From: a virus | Taxonomy: Duplodnaviria; Heunggongvirae; Uroviricota; Caudoviricetes | IMG/VR virus record: IMGVR_UViG_2721755711_000004 | Length of the DNA stretch: 46,862 bases | Direction: 5' to 3' (one strand) | In this document: one piece after another, positions 36,094 through 45,223 of the stretch | How the letters are laid out: every line of letters begins with the position of its first letter | Numbering within the stretch: position 1 is the first letter of the stretch | Position numbers and translations under genes: made by a program | Notes under the pieces: generated by a model | The model's input: the letters and a program-made list of their open reading frames with translations, nothing else | The model's database searches: none | Told to the model about the DNA's origin: nothing

Positions 36094-36676
36094 TTATCTT
36101 CTTTTCAGTTCCTTGGGAAGAAAAGCATCTATTTCTTCTTCAGAAAATGTTAAATCTTCTTTGTTTTTTAATGCGTCCTGTGCTTTTTTATAAGCTTCAA
36201 ATGTTGTACTAGGAGAGCCTGAATACACTGAATGTAAACTCTCGAGTAACGAATCCCGCTCTGACTGCAATTGCTCGATTGGTTTTTCACCCATTGCTAA
36301 GTCTGTAAGCAATGATAAATACTTTTCTCGGATTAACCAGATCTCATTTGCAGCCTGCTTATGTTTTTGCGCCAACTCACCAAGGTCATAATCTTTGGTA
36401 TAAGCGTTAAGAATGAGAAGCAGTGTTGATACAACAATCCCAACCCCCGTGCCTACTTCACCCGCGCCGAAAAAAGTTGCTAGAAAGCCTCCAGTAGTTA
36501 AGGCGGAGAGAATTATTTGCCAAAACTTTATAGAAGATAGTCGAGATAGGAGAATGTCTGAGCATTTTTCATGCGTCTTATGTGAGTAAACGACCCGACC
36601 ATAACACTCTCTGATCTGCCCTTCTAAAACCCTTCTAGATTCAGGTGTATCCTTAGTCTGGAAATGTTGATCCATA
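36094..36676 (-). CDS. two-TM membrane protein, SLATT-like predicted effector
   Basis: About 194 aa from MDQHFQTKD... (GGGAG RBS 5 nt upstream); two adjacent hydrophobic helices (FWQIILSALTTGGFLATFF and GVGIVVSTLLLILNAY) followed by a helical C-terminal region. Overlaps the upstream NTase gene by 24 nt. Confidence 0.6.
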
Positions 36677-37534
36677 AATCTCCCGCCATTTTTGCTTAGC
36701 CGACCATTCGCGTTTTGGGGTCGCCATTTCATGCTCTATAGCTTCGAGTGAAATGTTATAGCACCGTTTTGCTTTATATTGGAAAAGCCCTTTACCATAG
36801 ACATACTGACCACTTCCTGGCGCTTTCCAATACTCCTTACTCGTATCTTGATCAGCCATCCATTTGAAGAAATCACGACTCATGAAATCGTAGTAAAGAT
36901 ACGACTTATCTCTATGCGCCCAATTTTCAATGAATTGATACGCAAGCGTATCAATGAGTAAACCACTTACAGGTACATCCCATTTACGCTTCCAAGCTCT
37001 TGCCATTCTACAAAGTTGCACCAAATTGTTATTGGTAATGTTATTTCTTAACCTCATTGCAGAAATTTCTGGCTTTGGATTTGTAATCCTCCAACGGCCA
37101 CCACCGTTCGCATCAGGAAATGTGTAACTATCACTAACATTGAGGAAAGCTGGAACGACTTCAAATGTAATTCCATCATTGAACGGTACAAGGATCACTT
37201 GACCGTCACCTCTAATACTAGTGGTAGCATAGGTTTTTTCAATAGATCTCTTAACCGCTTGAAGCAATGCTGACTGCCCATTTCCTAAGTAGCTATTGTA
37301 TTTTTGATACTCGGAATATGGTAGCTGAAAAATCATATCCAGATCGCTCAAGCCTTGCGTAGCTGTGTTCCGACCATATGATCCAACGTAGAGACTATGA
37401 GAAGTATCAGAACTGCTATCCCAAAAATCCGTATTTAAACGCTTCGTTATATTCCTATATCTAGTTGAAATTGTTCCACCATCTTTTACAGTAAGATTGG
37501 AGCAAAATCCGCAAAACCACTCAGCTAAACCCAT
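36653..37534 (-). CDS. minimal nucleotidyltransferase (pol-beta superfamily; CD-NTase/SMODS-like)
   Basis: About 293 aa; motifs GSYGRNTATQGLSDLDMIF (GS...DxD) and ITFEVVPAF (third acidic residue on hxhEhhP). ATG at 37534 with AAGGAA upstream; the track ORF starts at a TTG two codons earlier. Confidence 0.65.
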   Translation of the reverse strand: MGLAEWFCGFCSNLTVKDGGTISTRYRNITKRLNTDFWDSSSDTSHSLYVGSYGRNTATQGLSDLDMIFQLPYSEYQKYNSYLGNGQSALLQAVKRSIEKTYATTSIRGDGQVILVPFNDGITFEVVPAFLNVSDSYTFPDANGGGRWRITNPKPEISAMRLRNNITNNNLVQLCRMARAWKRKWDVPVSGLLIDTLAYQFIENWAHRDKSYLYYDFMSRDFFKWMADQDTSKEYWKAPGSGQYVYGKGLFQYKAKRCYNISLEAIEHEMATPKREWSAKQKWREIYGSTFPD

Positions 37535-37847
37535 GCTCAATTCCTTTTCTAAAATCTAATGAAAAATTCAAGGGCGCATGTTCCATGCATCATTGATAAC
37601 TTTTTTCAGTCAGCTAGAGCAACATAATTGATACTAACTAGCTGTTTCTTCAAGTGAGTAACCTACTTTAGCATCAAGGTATTATACCTACCAAGCATGG
37701 GGAGAAACCACCACTTAAGCCATTGAAGTATATAGAGCAGATTTTGTTGAAAAAGCACTGTTTGTTTATACATATGAATAGTGCTTTTAACCAGCAATAG
37801 CGCGGCTCTCAGCGTTTTACAAGCAGTGTCATGGGGTGTCGGGGATC

Positions 37848-38564: not shown

Positions 38565-39641
38565 TTACCCCCTGAAGCCCGGTGGAATTTCGGTATCCGG
38601 TTCAGAAATATGATTCACACAACGCTGGTTGTTCGTACCGCTTACCGGGAGCAACCAGGGGTTTTCAAAATTCCGGTCCGGTCCAAAAAACGTCGTCGCT
38701 CGCTGAACAAATTCCGTTCCCGTTTTCCCGGTAGCCGCCAGGTATCTTGCGTAACGCCTCACACCATCCAGCATGGCCTCTGGTGGCACCCCCTCGCGTA
38801 ATCTGGCCTTCCAGGCACTGAAAGCGGATTTCTTCGGGTTTGCCCCAGCACGCAACGGGTATTCCCGCCAGACCTGTTCGAACACATCCGGATAATCTAC
38901 TCGCCCCACAGGCTGCCCGGTGTTTTCCGGGACTACCCGATCGGCTTCCCGCTGAATGGCGGAATCGGCTTCAGGCTGCTGCAGTTGGTGTGATTGCTCC
39001 GGCCTTGCGGTCATCACCTGCTGCACAGCGCCCGAATCGGCTTTCAGCGCATACGCTGAATCGGCTTCCGGTGTCGTGCCTGCTGGCTGACCAGGATTGA
39101 CGGTCTGAACATCCCCTGCCTGGTTCGTGGCGTTTTTTACGCCATGGACCATAGTGTTTTGATCTTCTTGATCTGTATCTTTATCTGTATCTTTATCTGT
39201 CGTGACTCGTCGTGACATGTGCGTGACATTTCGTGACGCGCCGTGACAATCGCCATTTTGTTCCCGCTTTCTTTCCCTCTCTCGCTGCGCCCTCTTGCGC
39301 TCTGCAGGAGATTTTGCGGTTTGCGAAATATTGCCGTTGTCCTCTTTAAGCACCTGGCGTTTTTCCCATCCAGTGATTAAATCACCATCAAGTACCCGCC
39401 CCTGCATCGTCTGCAAAATTGAATCAATTATCTCTTCTGTCACGTCGAGCGCACTTGCCAAATCTTCTGTCGTGACATCAATGTGACCTCGCGTGACATT
39501 GCGTGACGCGCTCACCAGGAGGTGGATATACACTGCCATCACTGTTGCAATTGGCTGCCCTGACACCCTGGCAATTGTTCGCCACTTAGGGTCATTTGGC
39601 ATGTCATGCCATAATCTGAGCCAGGCGTTAGCCATACTCAC
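38565..39641 (-). CDS. replication initiator, lambda O-like (contains the origin iterons)
   Basis: 358 aa with an N-terminal DNA-binding-like region; two clusters of GTGAC iterons and an AT-rich repeat lie inside the coding sequence, as for ori-lambda within O. Confidence 0.7.
   Translation of the reverse strand: MSMANAWLRLWHDMPNDPKWRTIARVSGQPIATVMAVYIHLLVSASRNVTRGHIDVTTEDLASALDVTEEIIDSILQTMQGRVLDGDLITGWEKRQVLKEDNGNISQTAKSPAERKRAQRERERKREQNGDCHGASRNVTHMSRRVTTDKDTDKDTDQEDQNTMVHGVKNATNQAGDVQTVNPGQPAGTTPEADSAYALKADSGAVQQVMTARPEQSHQLQQPEADSAIQREADRVVPENTGQPVGRVDYPDVFEQVWREYPLRAGANPKKSAFSAWKARLREGVPPEAMLDGVRRYARYLAATGKTGTEFVQRATTFFGPDRNFENPWLLPVSGTNNQRCVNHISEPDTEIPPGFRG
39201..39247. repeat. iteron array A: five direct CGTGAC repeats at 10-11 bp spacing
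   Basis: CGTGAC at 39201, 39211, 39222, 39232 and 39242; preceded by a three-fold ATCTGTATCTTT repeat (39165-39200). Confidence 0.6.
39441..39507. repeat. iteron array B: direct GTGAC repeats plus one inverted copy
   Basis: GTCACG (inverted) at 39441; CGTGAC at 39471, 39492 and 39502; GTGAC at 39483. Confidence 0.55.
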
Positions 39642-40462: not shown

Positions 40463-40882
40463 ATGGTTCATGAAGATAAAGCGCGTAAAGAGTTCGCCAG
40501 TAGGCTTGCGCTAGCCTGTGAAAACGCTGGTTATGAACAACATGGAAGGCAGGCAGAAATTGCCCGTCGAATGAAATTAACACCAAAAGCGGTTAGCAAA
40601 TGGTTTAATGGCGAAACAATTCCTCGCCGGGAGAAATTAAGGGAATTAGCAACACTAATAGGAACAACACCAACCTATCTTTTGGGAGAGGATACAGAAG
40701 AAAGTGGACAGGTACGTTTCTATCAGGAGTTAAATCCAAGACAAAAAATCATCATTGACCTTCTGGACGAGCTCCCTGACAGTGAGACAGATGAACTTTT
40801 AAAAACTCTTGAAGAGAAAAAACAGAAGTACAATGCAATTTACGAAGAGTTAGCACGAAAGAAAAAACAAAAAGCCTCTTAA
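40463..40882 (+). CDS. CI-like repressor (HTH_XRE N-terminal domain)
   Basis: 139 aa with an HTH (QAEIARRMKLTPKAVSKWFNGETIP) and a charged C-terminal domain. Confidence 0.7.
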   Translation: MVHEDKARKEFASRLALACENAGYEQHGRQAEIARRMKLTPKAVSKWFNGETIPRREKLRELATLIGTTPTYLLGEDTEESGQVRFYQELNPRQKIIIDLLDELPDSETDELLKTLEEKKQKYNAIYEELARKKKQKAS

Positions 40883-41180
40883 ACCAGCATAAATCCGGTA
40901 GCGCCTTCCTCCGGGTTTGTGCTTCACTTTATCCCATCTCATTTTTTTTACACACAAAATGTACTAAAAGTACTTTACAACAATGAACGCAAAGTACATT
41001 ATATACCTGCCACCCACCCCGCCCCACAGAATGCAGGGCAATACTTCGAGTTACCAGGCAGTGGTCAGGGGTTAAGTAGCCAGCCCGAGGCGTAAGAACA
41101 TGACGGCAGGGTTCAACTTTAATAACTATGCAGCAGGTTTTTGTTCCGCTACCCCGGCGTTAAGGGGAAATGAGGTCAGC

Positions 41181-41336
41181 ATGGATACTATCGATCTTGG
41201 CAACAGCGAATCTCTGGTATGTGGCGTGTTCCCCAACCAGGACGGTACGTTCACCGCGATGACGTATAACAAAAGCAAAACGTTTAAAACCGAAAATGGT
41301 GCCCGTCGCTGGCTGGAAAGAAACTCAGGTGAGTGA
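41181..41336 (+). CDS. ydfA: YdfA-like small protein
   Basis: 51 aa from MDTIDLGNSESLV...; first gene of the ydfABC-dicF-dicB cluster. Confidence 0.6.
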   Translation: MDTIDLGNSESLVCGVFPNQDGTFTAMTYNKSKTFKTENGARRWLERNSGE

Positions 41337-41337
41337 T

Positions 41338-41466
41338 ATGGATTTCGACACAATCATGGAAAAGGCTTACGAAGAATACTTCGAAGGTCTTGCCGAAGGC
41401 GAAGAAGCTCTCAGCTTCAACGAATTTAAACAGGCGCTTTCCAGTTCGGCAAAATCTAACGGCTGA
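41338..41466 (+). CDS. ydfB: YdfB-like small protein
   Basis: 42-aa ORF found by manual translation (MDFDTIMEKAYEEYFEGLAEGEEALSFNEFKQALSSSAKSNG). Confidence 0.55.
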   Translation: MDFDTIMEKAYEEYFEGLAEGEEALSFNEFKQALSSSAKSNG

Positions 41467-41495
41467 TAAGCGAAACAGCACCGCGAGGAATCAGT

Positions 41496-41714
41496 ATGCA
41501 GAAACGAGAACCCGTCATCATCGCGCCAGACTATACCGATGATGAACTTTATGAGTGGATGCACCAGAAAATTAATGCAGCGCAGGATCTGAAATGGGCC
41601 AATGAAGCCAGGGCTAAGCAGGCTGAAAATCTGTCCGCTCTGGAGCAGGATATCACTAATCTGGAAAAAGCAGCGGCATTAAGCATTGCCAGAATGATTA
41701 CATACCCGCGTTAA
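41496..41714 (+). CDS. ydfC: YdfC-like protein
   Basis: 72-aa ORF, third gene of the cluster. Confidence 0.65.
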   Translation: MQKREPVIIAPDYTDDELYEWMHQKINAAQDLKWANEARAKQAENLSALEQDITNLEKAAALSIARMITYPR

Positions 41715-42054
41715 TAGCTAACCAACGAAGCTAAGGTTGGTAATTAAGGAGTTCTCCACGGATGAGGTGGAGTGCGTGCGCCGGACACGGGTGAGCATCC
41801 GGCACAGACAGTTTACTGAAAGGATATTTCCCTGAAAGGTCAGACCATAACGCGAAAGCGCACGGCGAGGTAGCTGGTTCATAGATAGCCTGTCGTTAAA
41901 TTTTCGTCGACCGTGCGCTTCCGGTTGTGGCAATCCGCGAAATGGCGCGGCGGTAAGTATGGCGGGGTTATTCCTTCCCCGTTGAGGACACCGGGTTGTC
42001 AGGTTGACCATACGCTTAAGTGACAACCCCGCTGCAACGCCCTCTGTTATCAAT

Positions 42055-42112
42055 TTTCTGGTGACGTTTGGCGGTATCAGTTTTACTCCGTGACTGCTCT
42101 GCCGCCGTTTTT
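42055..42112 (+). ncRNA. dicF: DicF small regulatory RNA
   Basis: TTTCTGGTGACGTTTGGCGGTATCAGTTTTACTCCGTGACTGCTCTGCCGCC followed by a T-run matches the DicF sRNA as recalled; lies between ydfC and dicB. Confidence 0.8.
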
Positions 42113-42281
42113 AAAGTGAATTTTGTGATGCGGTGAATGCGGCTAAGCGCACGCGGAACAGTTAAAACCAAAAACAGTGTTATGGGTGGATTCTCTGTAT
42201 CCGGCGTTAATTGTTAACTGGTTAACGTCACCTGGAGGCACCAGGCACTGCATCACAAAATTCATTGTTGAGGACGCGATA

Positions 42282-42470
42282 ATGAAAACGTTATTACCAA
42301 ACGTTAATACGTCTGAAGGTTGTTTTGAAATTGGTGTCACTATCAGTAACCCTGTATTTACTGAAGATGCCATTAACAAGAGAAAACAAGAACGGGAGCT
42401 ATTAAATAAAATATGCATTGTTTCAATGCTGGCTCGTTTACGTCTGATGCCAAAAGGATGTACACAATGA
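42282..42470 (+). CDS. dicB: cell division inhibitor DicB
   Basis: 62 aa, MKTLLPNVNTSEGCFEIGVTISNPVFTEDAINKRKQERELLNKICIVSMLARLRLMPKGC.. Confidence 0.85.
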   Translation: MKTLLPNVNTSEGCFEIGVTISNPVFTEDAINKRKQERELLNKICIVSMLARLRLMPKGCTQ

Positions 42471-42658
42471 ATTCAGCATTTGCGCTTGTTCTGACAGTTT
42501 TTCTTGTTTCCGGAGAGCCAGTTGATATTGCAGACAGTGTTCACAGGACAATGCAGGAGTGTATGACTGCAGCAACCGAACAGAAAATTCCCGGTAACTG
42601 TTACCCGGTCGATAAAGTTATTCACCAGGATAATATCGAAATCCCGGCAGGTCTTTAA
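42467..42658 (+). CDS. ydfD: YdfD small membrane (lysis-associated) protein
   Basis: 63 aa from MNSAFALVLTVFLVSGEP...; its ATG overlaps the dicB stop (ATGA). Confidence 0.7.
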   Translation: MNSAFALVLTVFLVSGEPVDIADSVHRTMQECMTAATEQKIPGNCYPVDKVIHQDNIEIPAGL

Positions 42659-42751
42659 AACAGTTCCGTAATAAATATCCGGTTTCATTCTTATATGCCA
42701 GCAATGGCAGGGATTTGTTCATCCTTAAATCTGTCATGAGGTTAAAACAAA

Positions 42752-45223
42752 ATGAGTAAAGTCTTTATTTGCGCCGCTATTCCTGACGAACTGGCAACAA
42801 GGGAAGAAGGCGCTGTGGCTGTAGCCACAGCCATTGAAGCTGGCGACGAACGCCGTGCTCGAGCAAAATTTCACTGGCAGTTCCTGGAACATTATCCGGC
42901 TGCTCAGGACTGCGCTTATAAATTTATTGTCTGCGAGGATAAACCTGGCATACCCCGCCCTGCCCTCGATTCATGGGATGCTGAATATATGCAGGAAAAC
43001 CGCTGGGATGAGGAGTCTGCTTCTTTTGTCCCGGTTGAGACTGAATCCGATCCGATGAACGTCACTTTTGACAAGCTGGCCCCTGAAGTACAGAACGCTG
43101 TCATGGTTAAGTTCGACACATGTGAAAACATCACCGTTGATATGGTTATTAGCGCACAGGAATTGTTGCAGGAAGACATGGCAACATTCGACGGACATAT
43201 CGTTGAAGCGTTGATGAAAATGCCAGAAGTTAACGCCATGTATCCGGAGCTTAAGTTGCACGCCATTGGGTGGGTTAAGCATAAATGTATTCCTGGTGCT
43301 AAATGGCCCGAAATTCAGGCAGAGATGCGCATCTGGAAAAAACGTCGCGAAGGTGAACGCAAGGAAACCGGAAAATACACGTCTGTTGTTGATCTCGCCC
43401 GCGCCAGAGCCAATCAACAGTACACTGAAAATTCAACAGGAAAAATCAGCCCGGTCATTGCTGCCATTCATCGCGAATACAAGCAGACATGGAAAACACT
43501 GGATGACGAACTGGCCTACGCTCTCTGGCCTGGTGATGTGGATGCCGGAAACATTGACGGCAGCATCCATCGCTGGGCAAAAAAAGAAGTTATCGACAAC
43601 GACCGCGAAGACTGGAAGCGTATCTCGGCATCAATGCGCAAACAGCCTGATGCCCTTCGCTACGACCGCCAAACTATTTTTGGCCTTGTCCGTGAGCGTC
43701 CGATCGACATTCACAAAGATCCCGTAGCACTGAACAAATATATCTGCGAATACCTGACGACAAAGGGCGTGTTTGAGAATGAAGAAACAGACCTGGGCAC
43801 TGTTGATGTTCTCCAGTCATCAGAAACACAAACTGATGCAGTGGAAACTGAGGTATCTGATATCCCAAAAAATGAAACCGCGCCGGAAGCTGAACCATCT
43901 GTAGAGCGTGAGGGGCCGTTCTATTTCCTCTTCGCAGATAAGGACGGAGAAAAATACGGTCGCGCAAACAAACTTTCTGGTCTGGATAAGGCACTGGCTG
44001 CTGGCGCCACTGAAATCACAAAAGAAGAATATTTTGCCCGAAAAAATGGCACATACACGGGCTTACCGCAAAATGTAGATACCGCTGAAGATTCAGAACA
44101 ACCAGAGCCGATAAAAGTTACCGCTGACGAAGTAAACAAAATTATGCAGGCAGCCAATATCAGCCAGCCTGACGCCGATAAGTTGCTTGCTGCATCACAT
44201 GGTGAATTTGTTGAAGGGATTAGTGACCCGAATGATCCGAAATGGGTTAAGGGGATCCAGACCCGCGATTCTGTGAACCAGAACCAGCATGAATCGGAAC
44301 GGAACTACCAAAAAGCGGAACAAAACAGCCCAAATGCGTTACAAAACGAGCCAGAAACGAAACAGCCTGAACCAGTGGCGCAACAGGAAGTGGAAAAAGT
44401 CTGCACCGCCTGCGGTCAGACCGGCGGCGGCAACTGCCCTGATTGTGGCGCGGTGATGGGCGACGCAACATACCAAGAAACATTCGATGAAGAGTATCAG
44501 GTTGAAGTTCAGGAAGATGATCCGGAGGAAATGGAAGGCGCTGAACATCCACACAAGGAGAACACTGGCGGCAATCAGCATCACAATAGCGATAATGAAA
44601 CTGGCGAGACGGCAGATCACTCAATTAAGGTGAACGGTCATCACGAAATCACATCCACCAGCAGGACGTGTGACCATCTAATGATCGACCTTGAAACCAT
44701 GGGAAAAAATCCTGATGCACCGATCATCTCAATAGGTGCAATATTTTTCGATCCGCAAACCGGAGATATGGGACCGGAATTTAGTAAGACTATCGATCTG
44801 GAAACTGCTGGCGGAGTCATTGATCGGGACACCATTAAATGGTGGCTTAAGCAATCACGCGAAGCACAATCGGCCATTATGACCGATGAAATCCCGTTAG
44901 ATGATGCACTGTTACAATTGCGGGAATTTATCGACGAAAACTCCGGTGAATTTTTTGTTCAGGTTTGGGGAAATGGAGCCAACTTCGACAACACGATTTT
45001 GCGCCGTTCATACGAACGGCAGGGGATCCCCTGCCCGTGGCGTTACTACAACGATCGCGATGTACGCACAATCGTTGAGCTGGGGAAAGCCATAGATTTC
45101 GATGCCAGAACGGCTATTCCATTCGAAGGTGAGCGCCATAATGCCCTTGATGACGCCCGTTACCAGGCAAAATACGTTTCAGTTATCTGGCAAAAACTGA
45201 TCCCGAGTCAGGCTGATTCTTAA
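42752..45223 (+). CDS. ydfE: large exonuclease-family protein with C-terminal DEDDh 3'-5' exonuclease domain (full-length YdfE-like)
   Basis: 823 aa; C-terminal Exo I/II/III motifs (MIDLETMG, WGNGANFDNTIL, HNALDDARY), a central zinc-ribbon (CTACGQTGGGNCPDCG) and an acidic linker. Confidence 0.65.
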   Translation: MSKVFICAAIPDELATREEGAVAVATAIEAGDERRARAKFHWQFLEHYPAAQDCAYKFIVCEDKPGIPRPALDSWDAEYMQENRWDEESASFVPVETESDPMNVTFDKLAPEVQNAVMVKFDTCENITVDMVISAQELLQEDMATFDGHIVEALMKMPEVNAMYPELKLHAIGWVKHKCIPGAKWPEIQAEMRIWKKRREGERKETGKYTSVVDLARARANQQYTENSTGKISPVIAAIHREYKQTWKTLDDELAYALWPGDVDAGNIDGSIHRWAKKEVIDNDREDWKRISASMRKQPDALRYDRQTIFGLVRERPIDIHKDPVALNKYICEYLTTKGVFENEETDLGTVDVLQSSETQTDAVETEVSDIPKNETAPEAEPSVEREGPFYFLFADKDGEKYGRANKLSGLDKALAAGATEITKEEYFARKNGTYTGLPQNVDTAEDSEQPEPIKVTADEVNKIMQAANISQPDADKLLAASHGEFVEGISDPNDPKWVKGIQTRDSVNQNQHESERNYQKAEQNSPNALQNEPETKQPEPVAQQEVEKVCTACGQTGGGNCPDCGAVMGDATYQETFDEEYQVEVQEDDPEEMEGAEHPHKENTGGNQHHNSDNETGETADHSIKVNGHHEITSTSRTCDHLMIDLETMGKNPDAPIISIGAIFFDPQTGDMGPEFSKTIDLETAGGVIDRDTIKWWLKQSREAQSAIMTDEIPLDDALLQLREFIDENSGEFFVQVWGNGANFDNTILRRSYERQGIPCPWRYYNDRDVRTIVELGKAIDFDARTAIPFEGERHNALDDARYQAKYVSVIWQKLIPSQADS

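Follow-up and report, generated by a model that had tools for sequence, protein, structure and literature searches.

A putative iteron-type replication origin within the replisome organizer gene of a Qin-like lambdoid prophage

Results

The replication gene and its prophage context

The window, i.e. the whole 46,862-nt stretch of DNA that was analysed, carries a lambdoid prophage whose K-12 relative at the same locus, Qin, is defective. Its early genes, as well as the integrase, excisionase, immunity, lysis, terminase, portal, capsid/head and tail genes, are annotated as intact. The annotated prophage stretch contains one recognisable replication gene (Table 1), and no P-like, helicase or helicase loader gene was found within this stretch, or beside the corresponding gene of Escherichia phage Tritos. 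The next gene downstream is DUF977/Ren-like, and a SMODS-SLATT pair and a recombinase pseudogene have been inserted downstream. No tRNA genes were detected in the window.

The product of the replication gene matches PHROG 3729 ("replication initiation protein", E=1e-257), and PGAP names it "phage replisome organizer" on identical E. coli records. Both PGAP and the phage Tritos record place the start at ATG 39635, giving a protein of 356 aa, which in Tritos is 98.9% identical. The module is kept at 95-99% identity in more than 1,500 E. coli genomes. Clustering at 50% identity divides the initiator family into about 2,000 groups; its members are frequent in E. coli prophages and seem to have escaped study.

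Table 1. Features of the replication gene and of the repeat-containing region within it
Feature	Position	Strand	Description
Replication initiator gene ("phage replisome organizer")	38565..39641	-	358 aa from GTG at 39641
N-terminal winged-helix domain, presumed origin-binding module	39342..39635	-	aa 3-100
Array A	39471..39507	-	four direct GTCACG-type iterons, 10/10/11 bp; three perfect, one GTCACA
Inverted word copy, single	39439..39444	+	32 bp beyond array A, reading along the gene
Basic helix, candidate second DNA-contacting element	39255..39308	-	aa 112-129, AERKRAQRERERKRE; AF2
Array B	39201..39247	-	five direct GTCACG iterons, 10/10/11/10 bp; interdomain linker
A+T-rich tract, presumed DNA unwinding element	39157..39200	-	(A[C/A]AGAT) x5; encodes DKDTDKDTD
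Helical C-terminal domain, host-interface module	38682..38894	-	aa ~250-320
Disordered C-terminal tail	38568..38639	-	aa 335-358, ...VNHISEPDTEIPPGFRG; resembles the C-terminal end of E. coli DnaT

The first-pass annotation called this protein O-like. The term is justified by analogy, but the resemblance does not extend to the protein itself: Phage_rep_O (PF04492) was absent from the matches of 27 family members at E<=5, and the N-terminal winged helix is nearest to the DnaD-NTD type and also G38P-like, G38P being the replisome organizer of SPP1. With the whole initiator as query, Pfam gave no match at E<=0.01. Its score against Phage_rep_org_N (PF09681) was 16.8 bits, below the cut-off of 23.3, with residues 7-125 aligned to positions 1-119 of the 121-position profile; this profile was matched by four of 27 relatives (best E=3.3e-4). 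In an hhalign comparison of the family alignment with G38P (a single-sequence template) the order of motifs was the same, at E=0.18 and a probability of 0.3%. No ATPase domain was found in the initiator.

The C-terminal domain is exchanged between phages. The tail that follows it contains the extreme C-terminal motif of DnaT (...SEPD..IPPGFRG); it gave phmmer E values of 0.02-0.07 with the DnaT chains 6aep, 2ru8 and 9zbt_D (VNHISEPDTEIPPGFRG aligning to INSVSEPDNHIPPGFRG of 6aep) and E=0.0015 with positions 156-179 of the NCBIfam DnaT model, and it occurs in the family members from Enterobacterales only. The initiator gave no full-length match to the DnaT equivalog model, and the view that the whole C-terminal module is DnaT-like was rejected, since the C-terminal domain has no match to the DnaT helical bundle and the likeness is limited to the tail. 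Rather than a relative of lambda O, the initiator is a replisome organizer of the DnaD/G38P-like kind whose C-terminal tail resembles that of DnaT.

Two phased arrays of a six-nucleotide word

Nine copies of CGTGAC (GTCACG on the coding minus strand) are clustered within 307 bp of the replication gene, forming two arrays with a phasing of 10-11 bp (Table 1). Five direct copies at helical spacing had been reported at 39201-39247, and this array (array B) was confirmed: on the plus strand the copies start at 39201, 39211, 39222, 39232 and 39242, i.e. at intervals of 10/11/10/10 bp. They are read in three frames (CH, SR, VT, SR, VT). The three-fold ATCTGTATCTTT repeat noted next to them consists of two full 12-mers and a third copy that is truncated to ATCTGT; on the coding strand, this region is a series of five A(C/A)AGAT hexamers. 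Array B and the A+T-rich tract together encode aa 132-161, between the N-terminal domain (to ~aa 100) and the C-terminal domain (from ~aa 250). The coding sequence of the basic helix lies immediately upstream of array B.

Array A is situated 260 bp away, in the upstream part of the same gene. The earlier description of this cluster, one inverted and four direct copies, is correct as to the inverted copy and the presence of direct ones, although the latter comprise three perfect copies (plus-strand starts at 39471, 39492 and 39502) and an imperfect one with a single mismatch (TGTGAC at 39482), spaced 11/10/10 bp, and the inverted copy does not begin at 39441, as previously placed, but at 39439. 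Array A encodes aa 45-57 (ASRNVTRGHIDVT), which comprise the last part of helix 3 together with the loop/beta-1, while the inverted copy encodes D-V-T of the helix-turn-helix. As had been claimed, every copy lies within the coding sequence (ORF 38565-39641, minus strand). The iterons are direct units of 10-11 bp with a core of 6-7 bp, and have no internal dyad. The peptide ASRNVT appears twice in the initiator.

The window as a whole has 28 CGTGAC sites (vs 19.4 +/- 4.3 expected); nine of the 28 fall within the 307 bp described above, and no other phased cluster of this word was found in the 46.9-kb window. Given the background rate, the probability of four successive neighbours at +10 or +11 is ~8e-13 over the window. 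When the codons were shuffled synonymously 20,000 times, in a manner that preserved both the protein and its codon usage, the mean number of copies was 1.6 (maximum 7), compared with the 8 observed, and that of phased neighbour pairs was 0.11, compared with 5. This result, together with the use of three reading frames, demonstrates that the repeats are a DNA-level signal. Another repeat of the same gene, encoding PEADSA, is read in one frame throughout, unlike the GTCACG copies. Selection at the DNA level is also visible in array A, whose synonymous sites are frozen in the family (GTC 87% vs 22%, ACG 81% vs 26%, TCA 85% vs 10%) across hosts of 34-69% GC. The peptide encoded by array A is conserved within the GTCACG class of relatives.

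The adjoining A+T-rich tract

Array B is directly adjoined by a tract that is purine-rich on the coding strand and at which the GC content dips to 37%. Its positions 39157-39196 (75% A+T) are the least stable 40-mer of the gene, at -43.4 kcal/mol vs a mean of -57.3 +/- 3.8 (3.7 sd), and belong to the least stable 1% of the window; this is therefore the easiest place to melt in the gene. With 70-75% A+T, the tract is milder than classical unwinding elements. In the relatives, the 48 nt that follow array B are likewise A+T-rich (62-67% vs 43-49%) and purine-rich (70-75% vs 55%), and a (C/T)AGATAAAGATA motif recurs in the tract in every word class.

A hairpin with a 13-bp stem just past the tract (39121-39151), resembling the lambda ori palindrome, was considered as a further component and rejected, as it is not conserved: the best inverted repeat at this site averages 6.8 pairs in the relatives, compared with 6.2 in control regions. 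The hairpin is accordingly treated as a local feature. No DnaA boxes were found in or beside the element, and their number in the window is that expected by chance. A scan for promoters and terminators performed no better than on shuffled sequences.

A conserved layout with a switching word

A search of genome contigs, followed by alignment, yielded 59 related genes from diverse bacteria (a search of viral contigs returned near-identical E. coli copies only). The same layout recurs in this family: array A in codons ~45-57 of the winged-helix N-terminal domain, array B in the linker, and then the A+T/purine tract. Array A occupies the same gene position in 47 of the 59 relatives; a few family members have no array A, or degenerate repeats only. 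Iterons are nearly always spaced by 10 or 11 bp in the family, and within the GTCACG class this holds for 80 of 86 cases (arrays A and B combined); in many relatives of this class an inverted copy is likewise located at nt 198 of the gene. The position, phasing and word of array B are kept despite differences in the linker peptide that it encodes.

The word itself differs by lineage, being GTCACG, GAACGC, GTAACG or GTGACG. Cross-tabulation of these class words revealed that arrays A and B share one word in all 47 genomes (24, 17, 5 and 1 on the diagonal, 0 off it); a ranking by copy number is confounded by a GATAAA tandem tract. The two arrays thus switch in concert. GTCACG and GTAACG are both found in phages of Enterobacterales.

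The architecture is modular. Pseudomonas phage 5399 has only the N-terminal domain in common with the prophage (~70-73% identity), and shares both GTCACG arrays and the tract, with a different linker peptide, while Shigella phage 75/02 Stx shares only the C-terminal domain, and its gene lacks GTCACG. Judging from these sequences, the word goes with the N-terminal domain, and not with the C-terminal one. Fusions of the N-terminal domain to an HNH nuclease also exist, and retain array A in their own gene. Neighbouring genes vary across the relatives, the N-terminal domain being the only one always linked to the arrays.

Discussion

The first-pass annotation proposed an origin-like element, composed of phased iterons and an A+T-rich region, inside the initiator's own gene. 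This proposal is well supported by DNA-level repeats, a linked N-terminal domain, words that change in concert, an adjoining meltable tract and near-identity to Tritos. Features of an iteron-type theta origin are found together here, i.e. at least three helically phased direct repeats, an adjacent A+T-rich element and a repeat that covaries with the initiator. By analogy with the systems discussed below, rather than by homology to any of them, segment 39157-39507 is probably (at roughly 0.8) the theta-type origin of an intact Qin-like lambdoid prophage, placed within the gene of its only replication protein. We infer that the initiator binds this segment and that replication proceeds from it.

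The mechanism that we envisage is as follows. The N-terminal winged-helix domain would bind the 10-11 bp iterons (core GTCACG) as head-to-tail monomers, one per helical turn, so that the five copies of array B nucleate a nucleoprotein filament that runs along a single face of the helix, beside the 40-bp A+T-rich, strand-asymmetric tract, which would open under supercoiling. Array A may serve as a second initiator-binding array that strengthens or loops the complex, or else holds down transcription of the gene in which it lies. The cluster is not a duplicate origin but a conserved array of accessory character, located where the gene encodes the DNA-binding domain, and it has no A+T tract of its own. 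The exchangeable C-terminal module would bring in the host helicase, and the DnaT-like tail of the enterobacterial members suggests entry via PriA/PriB/DnaT or by the DnaB-DnaC route. Recruitment of this kind would account for the lack of an accompanying P, DnaC or DnaB gene. Counting against the proposed binding is the fact that the N-terminal domain of DnaD acts mainly as a scaffold and is not its DNA-binding part.

The ori of lambda lies inside gene O (PMC3349717), and its four iterons of 18-19 bp are imperfect inverted repeats, each bound by an O dimer (PMC7466680, PMC3349717). The suggestion that the prophage mirrors ori-lambda is therefore apt for the layout of an origin within an initiator gene, but not for the iterons, which are direct, one per turn and devoid of dyad symmetry. 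Common to both are the location of the origin at the link between an origin-binding N-terminal and a host-interface C-terminal domain, the order of initiator-binding repeats and a ~40-bp A+T-rich tract in the direction of transcription, and transcription as part of the early rightward operon, behind cro- and cII-like genes. In both, the N-terminal domain and the origin form one exchangeable specificity module and the C-terminal domain another. The prophage differs in having no Phage_rep_O homology, in the second array inside the coding region of the DNA-binding domain, and in the DUF977/Ren-like gene that stands next to the initiator in place of a P-like helicase loader.

The closest protein family by HMM is that of SPP1 G38P, end-to-end but below threshold, the profile similarity not being significant. 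Gene 38 of SPP1 contains oriL, in which AB-box repeats stand next to an A+T-rich DUE and of which 356 bp are sufficient in vitro (PMC5737612). Here too, an origin of repeats and DUE would lie inside the organizer's own gene, and the SPP1 repeats (gene nt ~360-450) have the same relative position as array B. In SPP1, a loader and a helicase of its own (G39P, G40P) are encoded directly after gene 38, whereas neither is present in this phage, and the second G38P site of SPP1 (oriR) is far away, in contrast to array A within the same gene. Very short iterons are known from the SaPI origins, in which penta- or hexanucleotides around an A+T-rich melting region are recognised, in an element-specific manner, by the winged-helix domain of Rep (PMC9371898). 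The combination of such iterons with an A+T-rich region, and a winged-helix domain as the presumed binder, are features shared with the prophage; however, the SaPI iterons lie downstream of rep and are placed to either side of the A+T region, with opposing orientations, and Rep is a self-loading helicase. DnaD and DnaT differ in that they are not sequence-specific origin binders with iterons of their own; moreover, the three-helix bundle and N-terminal domain of DnaT are undetectable in the initiator, in which the tail match is short. Satellite phage P4 has, in its ori and crr, two separate arrays of octamers, i.e. short direct repeats, that are bound by one initiator and both contribute in cis to replication. 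The P4 arrays are kilobases apart and outside the sequence encoding the DNA-binding domain of their initiator, alpha, which is a primase-helicase.

Other explanations of the arrays were weighed against the origin reading. They could be operator-like sites at which the initiator, or another phage protein, tunes or blocks transcription and translation of the replication gene, with replication starting elsewhere. Initiators commonly autoregulate via iterons, and array A is found towards the 5' end of the gene, without an A+T tract, and is dispensable in some relatives; such a role is more plausible for array A alone, where it is a possibility worth considering though not the one we favour, than for the whole element, for which it appears unlikely. 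Array B invariably adjoins the gene's least stable, strand-asymmetric tract, a pairing that is the hallmark of origins and that an operator does not need, its interdomain-linker position matches that in lambda and SPP1, and the word forms no phased cluster anywhere else in the window. It is even less probable that the origin is a relic which no longer fires in a defective prophage. The state of Qin and the downstream insertions would agree with decay, but the initiator ORF is intact, the origin region has only 3 differences in ~550 positions from that of the deposited phage Tritos (none of them in array B or the A+T tract, which are 100% identical), genes from the integrase through to the tail are annotated as intact, and the module is retained by the many E. 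coli genomes mentioned above.

There is only a slight chance that the arrays are sites for a protein other than a replicating initiator, such as a packaging protein, a host factor or a nuclease. The HNH fusions that keep array A imply that the pair of domain and word is used outside initiation; against this, the neighbours of the gene differ across the relatives, among which the N-terminal domain alone is always linked to the arrays, the terminase genes are ~30 kb away, and DnaA boxes are not enriched. The occurrence of different words in phages of related hosts, as in Enterobacterales, also argues against a host factor. Finally, the repeats might simply result from codon bias or from a peptide that repeats itself, and be devoid of any function at the DNA level, as could be imagined from the recurrence of ASRNVT and the conserved array A peptide. 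This explanation is refuted by the three reading frames, the frozen synonymous sites and the permutation result, and its probability is negligible; the linker peptides differ between phages that keep word and phasing, and the PEADSA repeat exemplifies a peptide repeat confined to one frame.

An origin within an initiator gene is textbook knowledge for lambda and SPP1, so the basic reading proposed here is not new. Our literature search on the word with "iteron" and on phage Tritos returned nothing relevant, and an earlier in silico mention of the repeats is possible. As far as we could find, novelty lies in a large initiator family with minimal iterons of one direct word per turn, in a second array that forms part of the very sequence encoding the DNA-binding domain, where the peptide is forced to follow the DNA word, and in a natural series of specificity switches, some of a single base (GTC, GTA or GTG before ACG), that affect both arrays together. 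This series makes it testable how an initiator and its origin can change specificity jointly without a dead intermediate. The lone initiator and its DnaT-like tail point to a means by which a lambdoid phage could engage the host helicase in the absence of any P or DnaC analogue. In practical terms, the element would serve as a marker for the origin of replication in a very common E. coli prophage family.

The residues encoded by array A are the sole class-specific ones within aa 1-100, and in the folded N-terminal domain they alone separate the GTCACG and GAACGC classes; none were found in the predicted recognition helix and wing. It is conceivable, although we rate the idea as a long shot, that the loop/beta-1 (aa 47-57) reads the variable 5' triplet (GTC, GTA, GTG or CGA before the invariant ACG), while the class-invariant recognition helix and wing could read the shared ACG. 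Specificity would then be self-referential, as the loop/beta-1 is encoded by array A, i.e. by copies of the very word that it recognises. Were this speculative scheme true, a change of the array A word would alter, at once, the DNA site and the protein segment that reads it, so that new origin specificities (new incompatibility groups) would have an inherent way of arising. The central residue of the basic helix also varies with the iteron class (Q, W, or Y/F/H), though imperfectly, and as a specificity determinant (Q, W, or Y/F) it was rejected because it does not separate the classes cleanly.

An iteron-type element within the initiator gene

We consider that a DNA element lying within the replication initiator gene is the replication origin of the phage, bound by the N-terminal winged-helix domain (N-domain) of the encoded protein. 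The probability of this reading may be put at about 80%, because four features of the element match an iteron-type theta origin and because phages lambda and SPP1 provide precedents. These features are (i) phased direct repeats specific to the linked initiator module, (ii) their position next to the most easily melting tract, (iii) the strand asymmetry of this tract, located downstream of the repeats in the direction of transcription, and (iv) the placement of the element within the initiator gene, in its interdomain region. Jointly they constitute the anatomy of an iteron-type theta origin.

The repeated word is CGTGAC on the plus strand (GTCACG on the coding strand). Its direct copies (iterons) form array A, in the part of the gene encoding the N-domain, and array B, in the interdomain linker. 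The first-pass annotation had reported five direct CGTGAC repeats at helical spacing in the latter, and had placed all repeats within the initiator coding sequence; both statements proved accurate. Its second cluster of four direct copies and one inverted copy required correction: the inverted copy is indeed single, while the direct copies comprise three perfect ones and one with a mismatch. A repeat described as three-fold (3 x ATCTGTATCTTT) is in reality two full units and a half.

Features of the initiator gene and of the surrounding prophage (window positions)
Feature	Position	Strand	Description
Replication initiator gene	38565-39641	minus	358-aa ORF (ORF list)
DnaT-like C-terminal tail	38568-38639		..PD..IP(P/A/D)GFRG
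Second repeat, GAAGCCGATTC	38962-39065	minus	encodes PEADSA/KADSG
Inverted repeat	39121-39151		13-bp stem, 5-nt loop; TGGTTCGTGGCGT TTTTT ACGCCATGGACCA
A+T-rich tract	39157-39200		between array B and remainder of gene; pyrimidine-rich on plus strand
Array B	39201-39247	minus (gene)	five perfect GTCACG copies, spacing 10/11/10/10
Inverted word copy	39439-39444		single
Array A	39471-39507	minus (gene)	three perfect copies and one with one mismatch, spacing 11/10/10
SMODS and SLATT_4 genes	36094-37540	minus	overlapping pair
Immunity region and ydfA/B/C-dicF-dicB-ydfD block	40463-42700		cI-like (139 aa), cro-like and YdaT/cII-like genes
823-aa protein	42752-45223	plus	PGAP 'exonuclease'

The window contains 28 CGTGAC sites (19.4 ± 4.3 in shuffled sequences), nine of them within 307 bp, and the probability of four successive neighbours at +10 or +11, given the background rate in the window, is approximately 8e-13. 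The explanation that such repeats are a by-product of a repeated peptide or of codon preference is refuted by reading frames, synonymous permutations and frozen synonymous sites. The copies of array B read CH, SR, VT, SR, VT and those of array A read SR, VT, GH, VT; since all three frames are occupied, a peptide repeat cannot explain them. In 20,000 synonymous permutations, with protein and codon usage fixed, GTCACG occurred 1.6 ± 1.0 times (maximum 7) and phased pairs 0.11 times, compared with the 8 copies and 5 pairs observed. Moreover, in genes of the GTCACG class, whose hosts range from 34 to 69% GC, array A encodes Val by GTC in 41/47 cases (87%), Thr by ACG in 35/43 (81%) and Ser by TCA in 17/20 (85%), while elsewhere in the genes these codons account for 22%, 26% and 10% of the respective amino acids. 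An internal contrast is provided by the other repeat of the initiator gene, GCCGATTC (peptide PEADSA), which remains in one frame throughout.

On the coding strand the A+T-rich tract is composed of five A(C/A)AGAT hexamers. No 40-mer of the gene is less stable than positions 39157-39196 (75% A+T; nearest-neighbour dG of -43.4 vs -57.3 ± 3.8 kcal/mol), which fall in the least stable 1% of the entire window. In relatives, the 48 nt past the final iteron of array B have an A+T content of 62-67%, compared with 43-49% elsewhere, and a purine content on the coding strand of 70-75%, compared with 55% elsewhere; a (C/T)AGATAAAGATA motif recurs in their tracts whatever the word class. The inverted repeat just past the tract is identical in Escherichia phage Tritos and shows no conservation in more distant relatives.

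Concerted change of the arrays in related initiators

The initiator (PGAP name 'phage replisome organizer'; start codon ATG at 39635 according to PGAP and the Tritos record) matches PHROG 3729, 'replication initiation protein' (1e-257), and is modular. Pseudomonas phage 5399 matches aa 3-140 only, while Stx phages, mEp460 and others match aa ~160-358 only, and the junction of these two exchangeable parts is the putative origin element. The N-domain of phage 5399 is ~70-73% identical to that of the window initiator and its C-terminus is unrelated. Its gene nevertheless carries four GTCACG copies plus an inverted one at the array A position, and in the linker four copies at exact 10-bp spacing followed by GATAAAGATACAGAAGAAGAGAAA, where the peptide is DDVTQCHAESRNVT instead of the DCHGASRNVTHMSRRVTT of the window initiator. 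The gene of Shigella phage 75/02 Stx, which has only the C-domain in common, contains no GTCACG. Sequence comparison thus indicates that the iteron word follows the N-domain.

The family comprises 2,011 clusters at 50% identity (E≤1e-3). An alignment-driven scan, with one genome per species, gave 66 loci, which belong to Gamma-, Beta- and Alphaproteobacteria and to some MAGs assigned to other phyla; 59 complete genes, drawn from these loci plus phages 5399 and Tritos, were analysed. The layout recurs, with array A at gene nt ~135-170 and array B at nt ~360-440, and the word differs by lineage: GTCACG, GAACGC (CGAACGCA), GTAACG or GTGACG. All four words end 3' in ACG(C), and the preceding triplet varies. 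Scored as present at least twice in each region, the words of arrays A and B were concordant in 47 genes (24, 17, 5 and 1 on the diagonal) and discordant in none; since the sequences are phylogenetically related, independent support comes from the word switches, of which there are at least three, each in both arrays. The four words sum to 161 copies in array A regions and 186 in array B regions; the other ~470 nt of each gene start hold 27 altogether.

Array B occurs alone in five loci and array A alone in one; array B with the tract is therefore the core, and array A a frequent accessory. None of the four words was found in either array region of seven loci; among the wordless loci examined, three have degenerate repeats only, and the array B of L130 uses another word, ACTACG. 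At the array B position, L130 and L145 (Serratia, Pantoea) show a palindromic ACTACGTAGT-type word; both lack array A and encode much longer proteins (398-436 aa). In an Erwinia phyllosphaerae locus, GTCACG copies occur at 5-bp as well as 10-bp spacing (GTCACGTCACGTCACG).

When aa 1-100 of 23 GTCACG-class and 18 GAACGC-class N-domains were compared, residues did not overlap between classes only in columns 47, 49, 50, 53, 54 and 57, exactly those encoded by array A; no class-specific residue was found in the predicted recognition helix (69-79) or wing (80-90). The central residue of the basic helix just ahead of array B is biased by class (Q, W, or Y/F/H); it was rejected as the determinant, as it does not separate the classes cleanly. 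It is improbable that the loop reads the variable triplet of the very word encoding it. Otherwise, the loop changes may follow passively from the DNA word, or the determinant may be spread over several positions.

Probable function of the element, and the surrounding prophage

The window covers part of an E. coli chromosome, with an apparently intact Qin-like lambdoid prophage adjoining rspB. The prophage carries int/xis, the 823-aa exonuclease, dicB/dicF/ydfABC, cI-like, cro-like and YdaT/cII-like genes, the initiator gene and DUF977, followed by an inserted SMODS-SLATT pair, hokD, ydfU/ydfT, cold-shock, lysis, terminase, portal, capsid and tail genes; in the stretch covered by the annotation, no gene is labelled as a homologue of P, DnaC or DnaB. 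The Tritos protein is 98.9% identical to the initiator and has the same neighbour genes; the origin regions differ at 3 of ~550 positions, with array B and the tract identical. The module with the initiator is present in >1,500 E. coli genomes.

Given this near identity with Tritos and the intact gene set, it is unlikely that the origin is a relic. Recognition of the arrays by another protein is also unlikely, since the N-domain alone is constantly linked to them and since phages with related hosts use different words. Array A by itself could plausibly serve as an operator with a purely regulatory role, but such a role leaves unexplained the constant pairing of array B with the unstable tract.

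If the element is the origin, one N-domain monomer per helical turn would bind the iterons on one face of the DNA, the A+T-rich tract would open, and the C-module would recruit the helicase. A DnaT-like tail confined to Enterobacterales members, together with the absence of a loader gene, suggests that the helicase might enter via the PriA/PriB/DnaT or DnaB-DnaC route. This step is proposed only tentatively, because we found no statement in the literature on the role of the extreme DnaT tail; the DnaT CTD forms filaments on ssDNA and docks on PriA (PMC13377028).

An origin inside an initiator gene is of a known kind, for which lambda and SPP1 are the experimental precedents, and this reading would not astonish a specialist. 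The O gene of lambda contains four iterons and an A+T tract of 38 bp (PMC3349717, PMC7466680), and SPP1 has AB boxes and a DUE inside gene 38, 356 bp being sufficient in vitro (PMC5737612), with the repeats at the same relative gene position as here. Short penta- or hexanucleotide iterons are read by the winged helix of SaPI Rep (PMC9371898). The present family appears to be unstudied: a literature search, whose reach did not extend to a 2006 review of phage replication modules, found no paper on the repeats or on Tritos replication. Its distinctive traits are minimal iterons at one per turn, a second array within the sequence coding for the DNA-binding domain, concerted word switching, and a solo initiator with a DnaT-like tail. 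It therefore offers an unusually clean natural system for the joint change of specificity of initiator and origin.

Additional observations

The immunity region and dicB block show that the prophage is related to Qin of K-12 and intact; the K-12 Qin is defective and presumably lacks this replication gene. The 823-aa protein ('exonuclease VIII' in Tritos) has a long acidic, low-complexity middle region ahead of ~200 C-terminal aa resembling, by eye, a DEDDh 3'-5' exonuclease. The SMODS nucleotidyltransferase (295 aa, Pfam E=2e-50) and the SLATT_4 two-TM effector (212 aa, E=6e-74), located between DUF977 and hokD where Tritos has another gene, are likely an anti-phage signalling pair.

The DnaT-like tail occurs only in Enterobacterales family members (the window, L094, L104 and L109); members from other orders have unrelated C-termini on the same N-domain/origin module. 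The GAAGCCGATTC repeat, also present in L002 (3100-3213) and always in one frame, lies in the acidic region ahead of the C-domain and is shared by the C-module of the Shigella Stx phage. It seems to be a motif at the peptide level, not a DNA site, and may imitate the acidic linker through which DnaT binds PriB.

The N-domain of the family is also fused to an HNH nuclease in proteins of ~180-190 aa (P0043, P0061, P0062, P0076, P0105, P0107, P0114). One fusion gene (L151, 4001-4546; Logan SRR27947145 contig) keeps a perfect array A of four GTCACG copies, with neither array B nor the A+T tract. Immediately downstream of this gene is an initiator of a different family, N-terminally similar to the Stx-phage 'primosomal protein I'. 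The fusion may be a homing element, or a nuclease targeting the GTCACG-type origins of rival phages.
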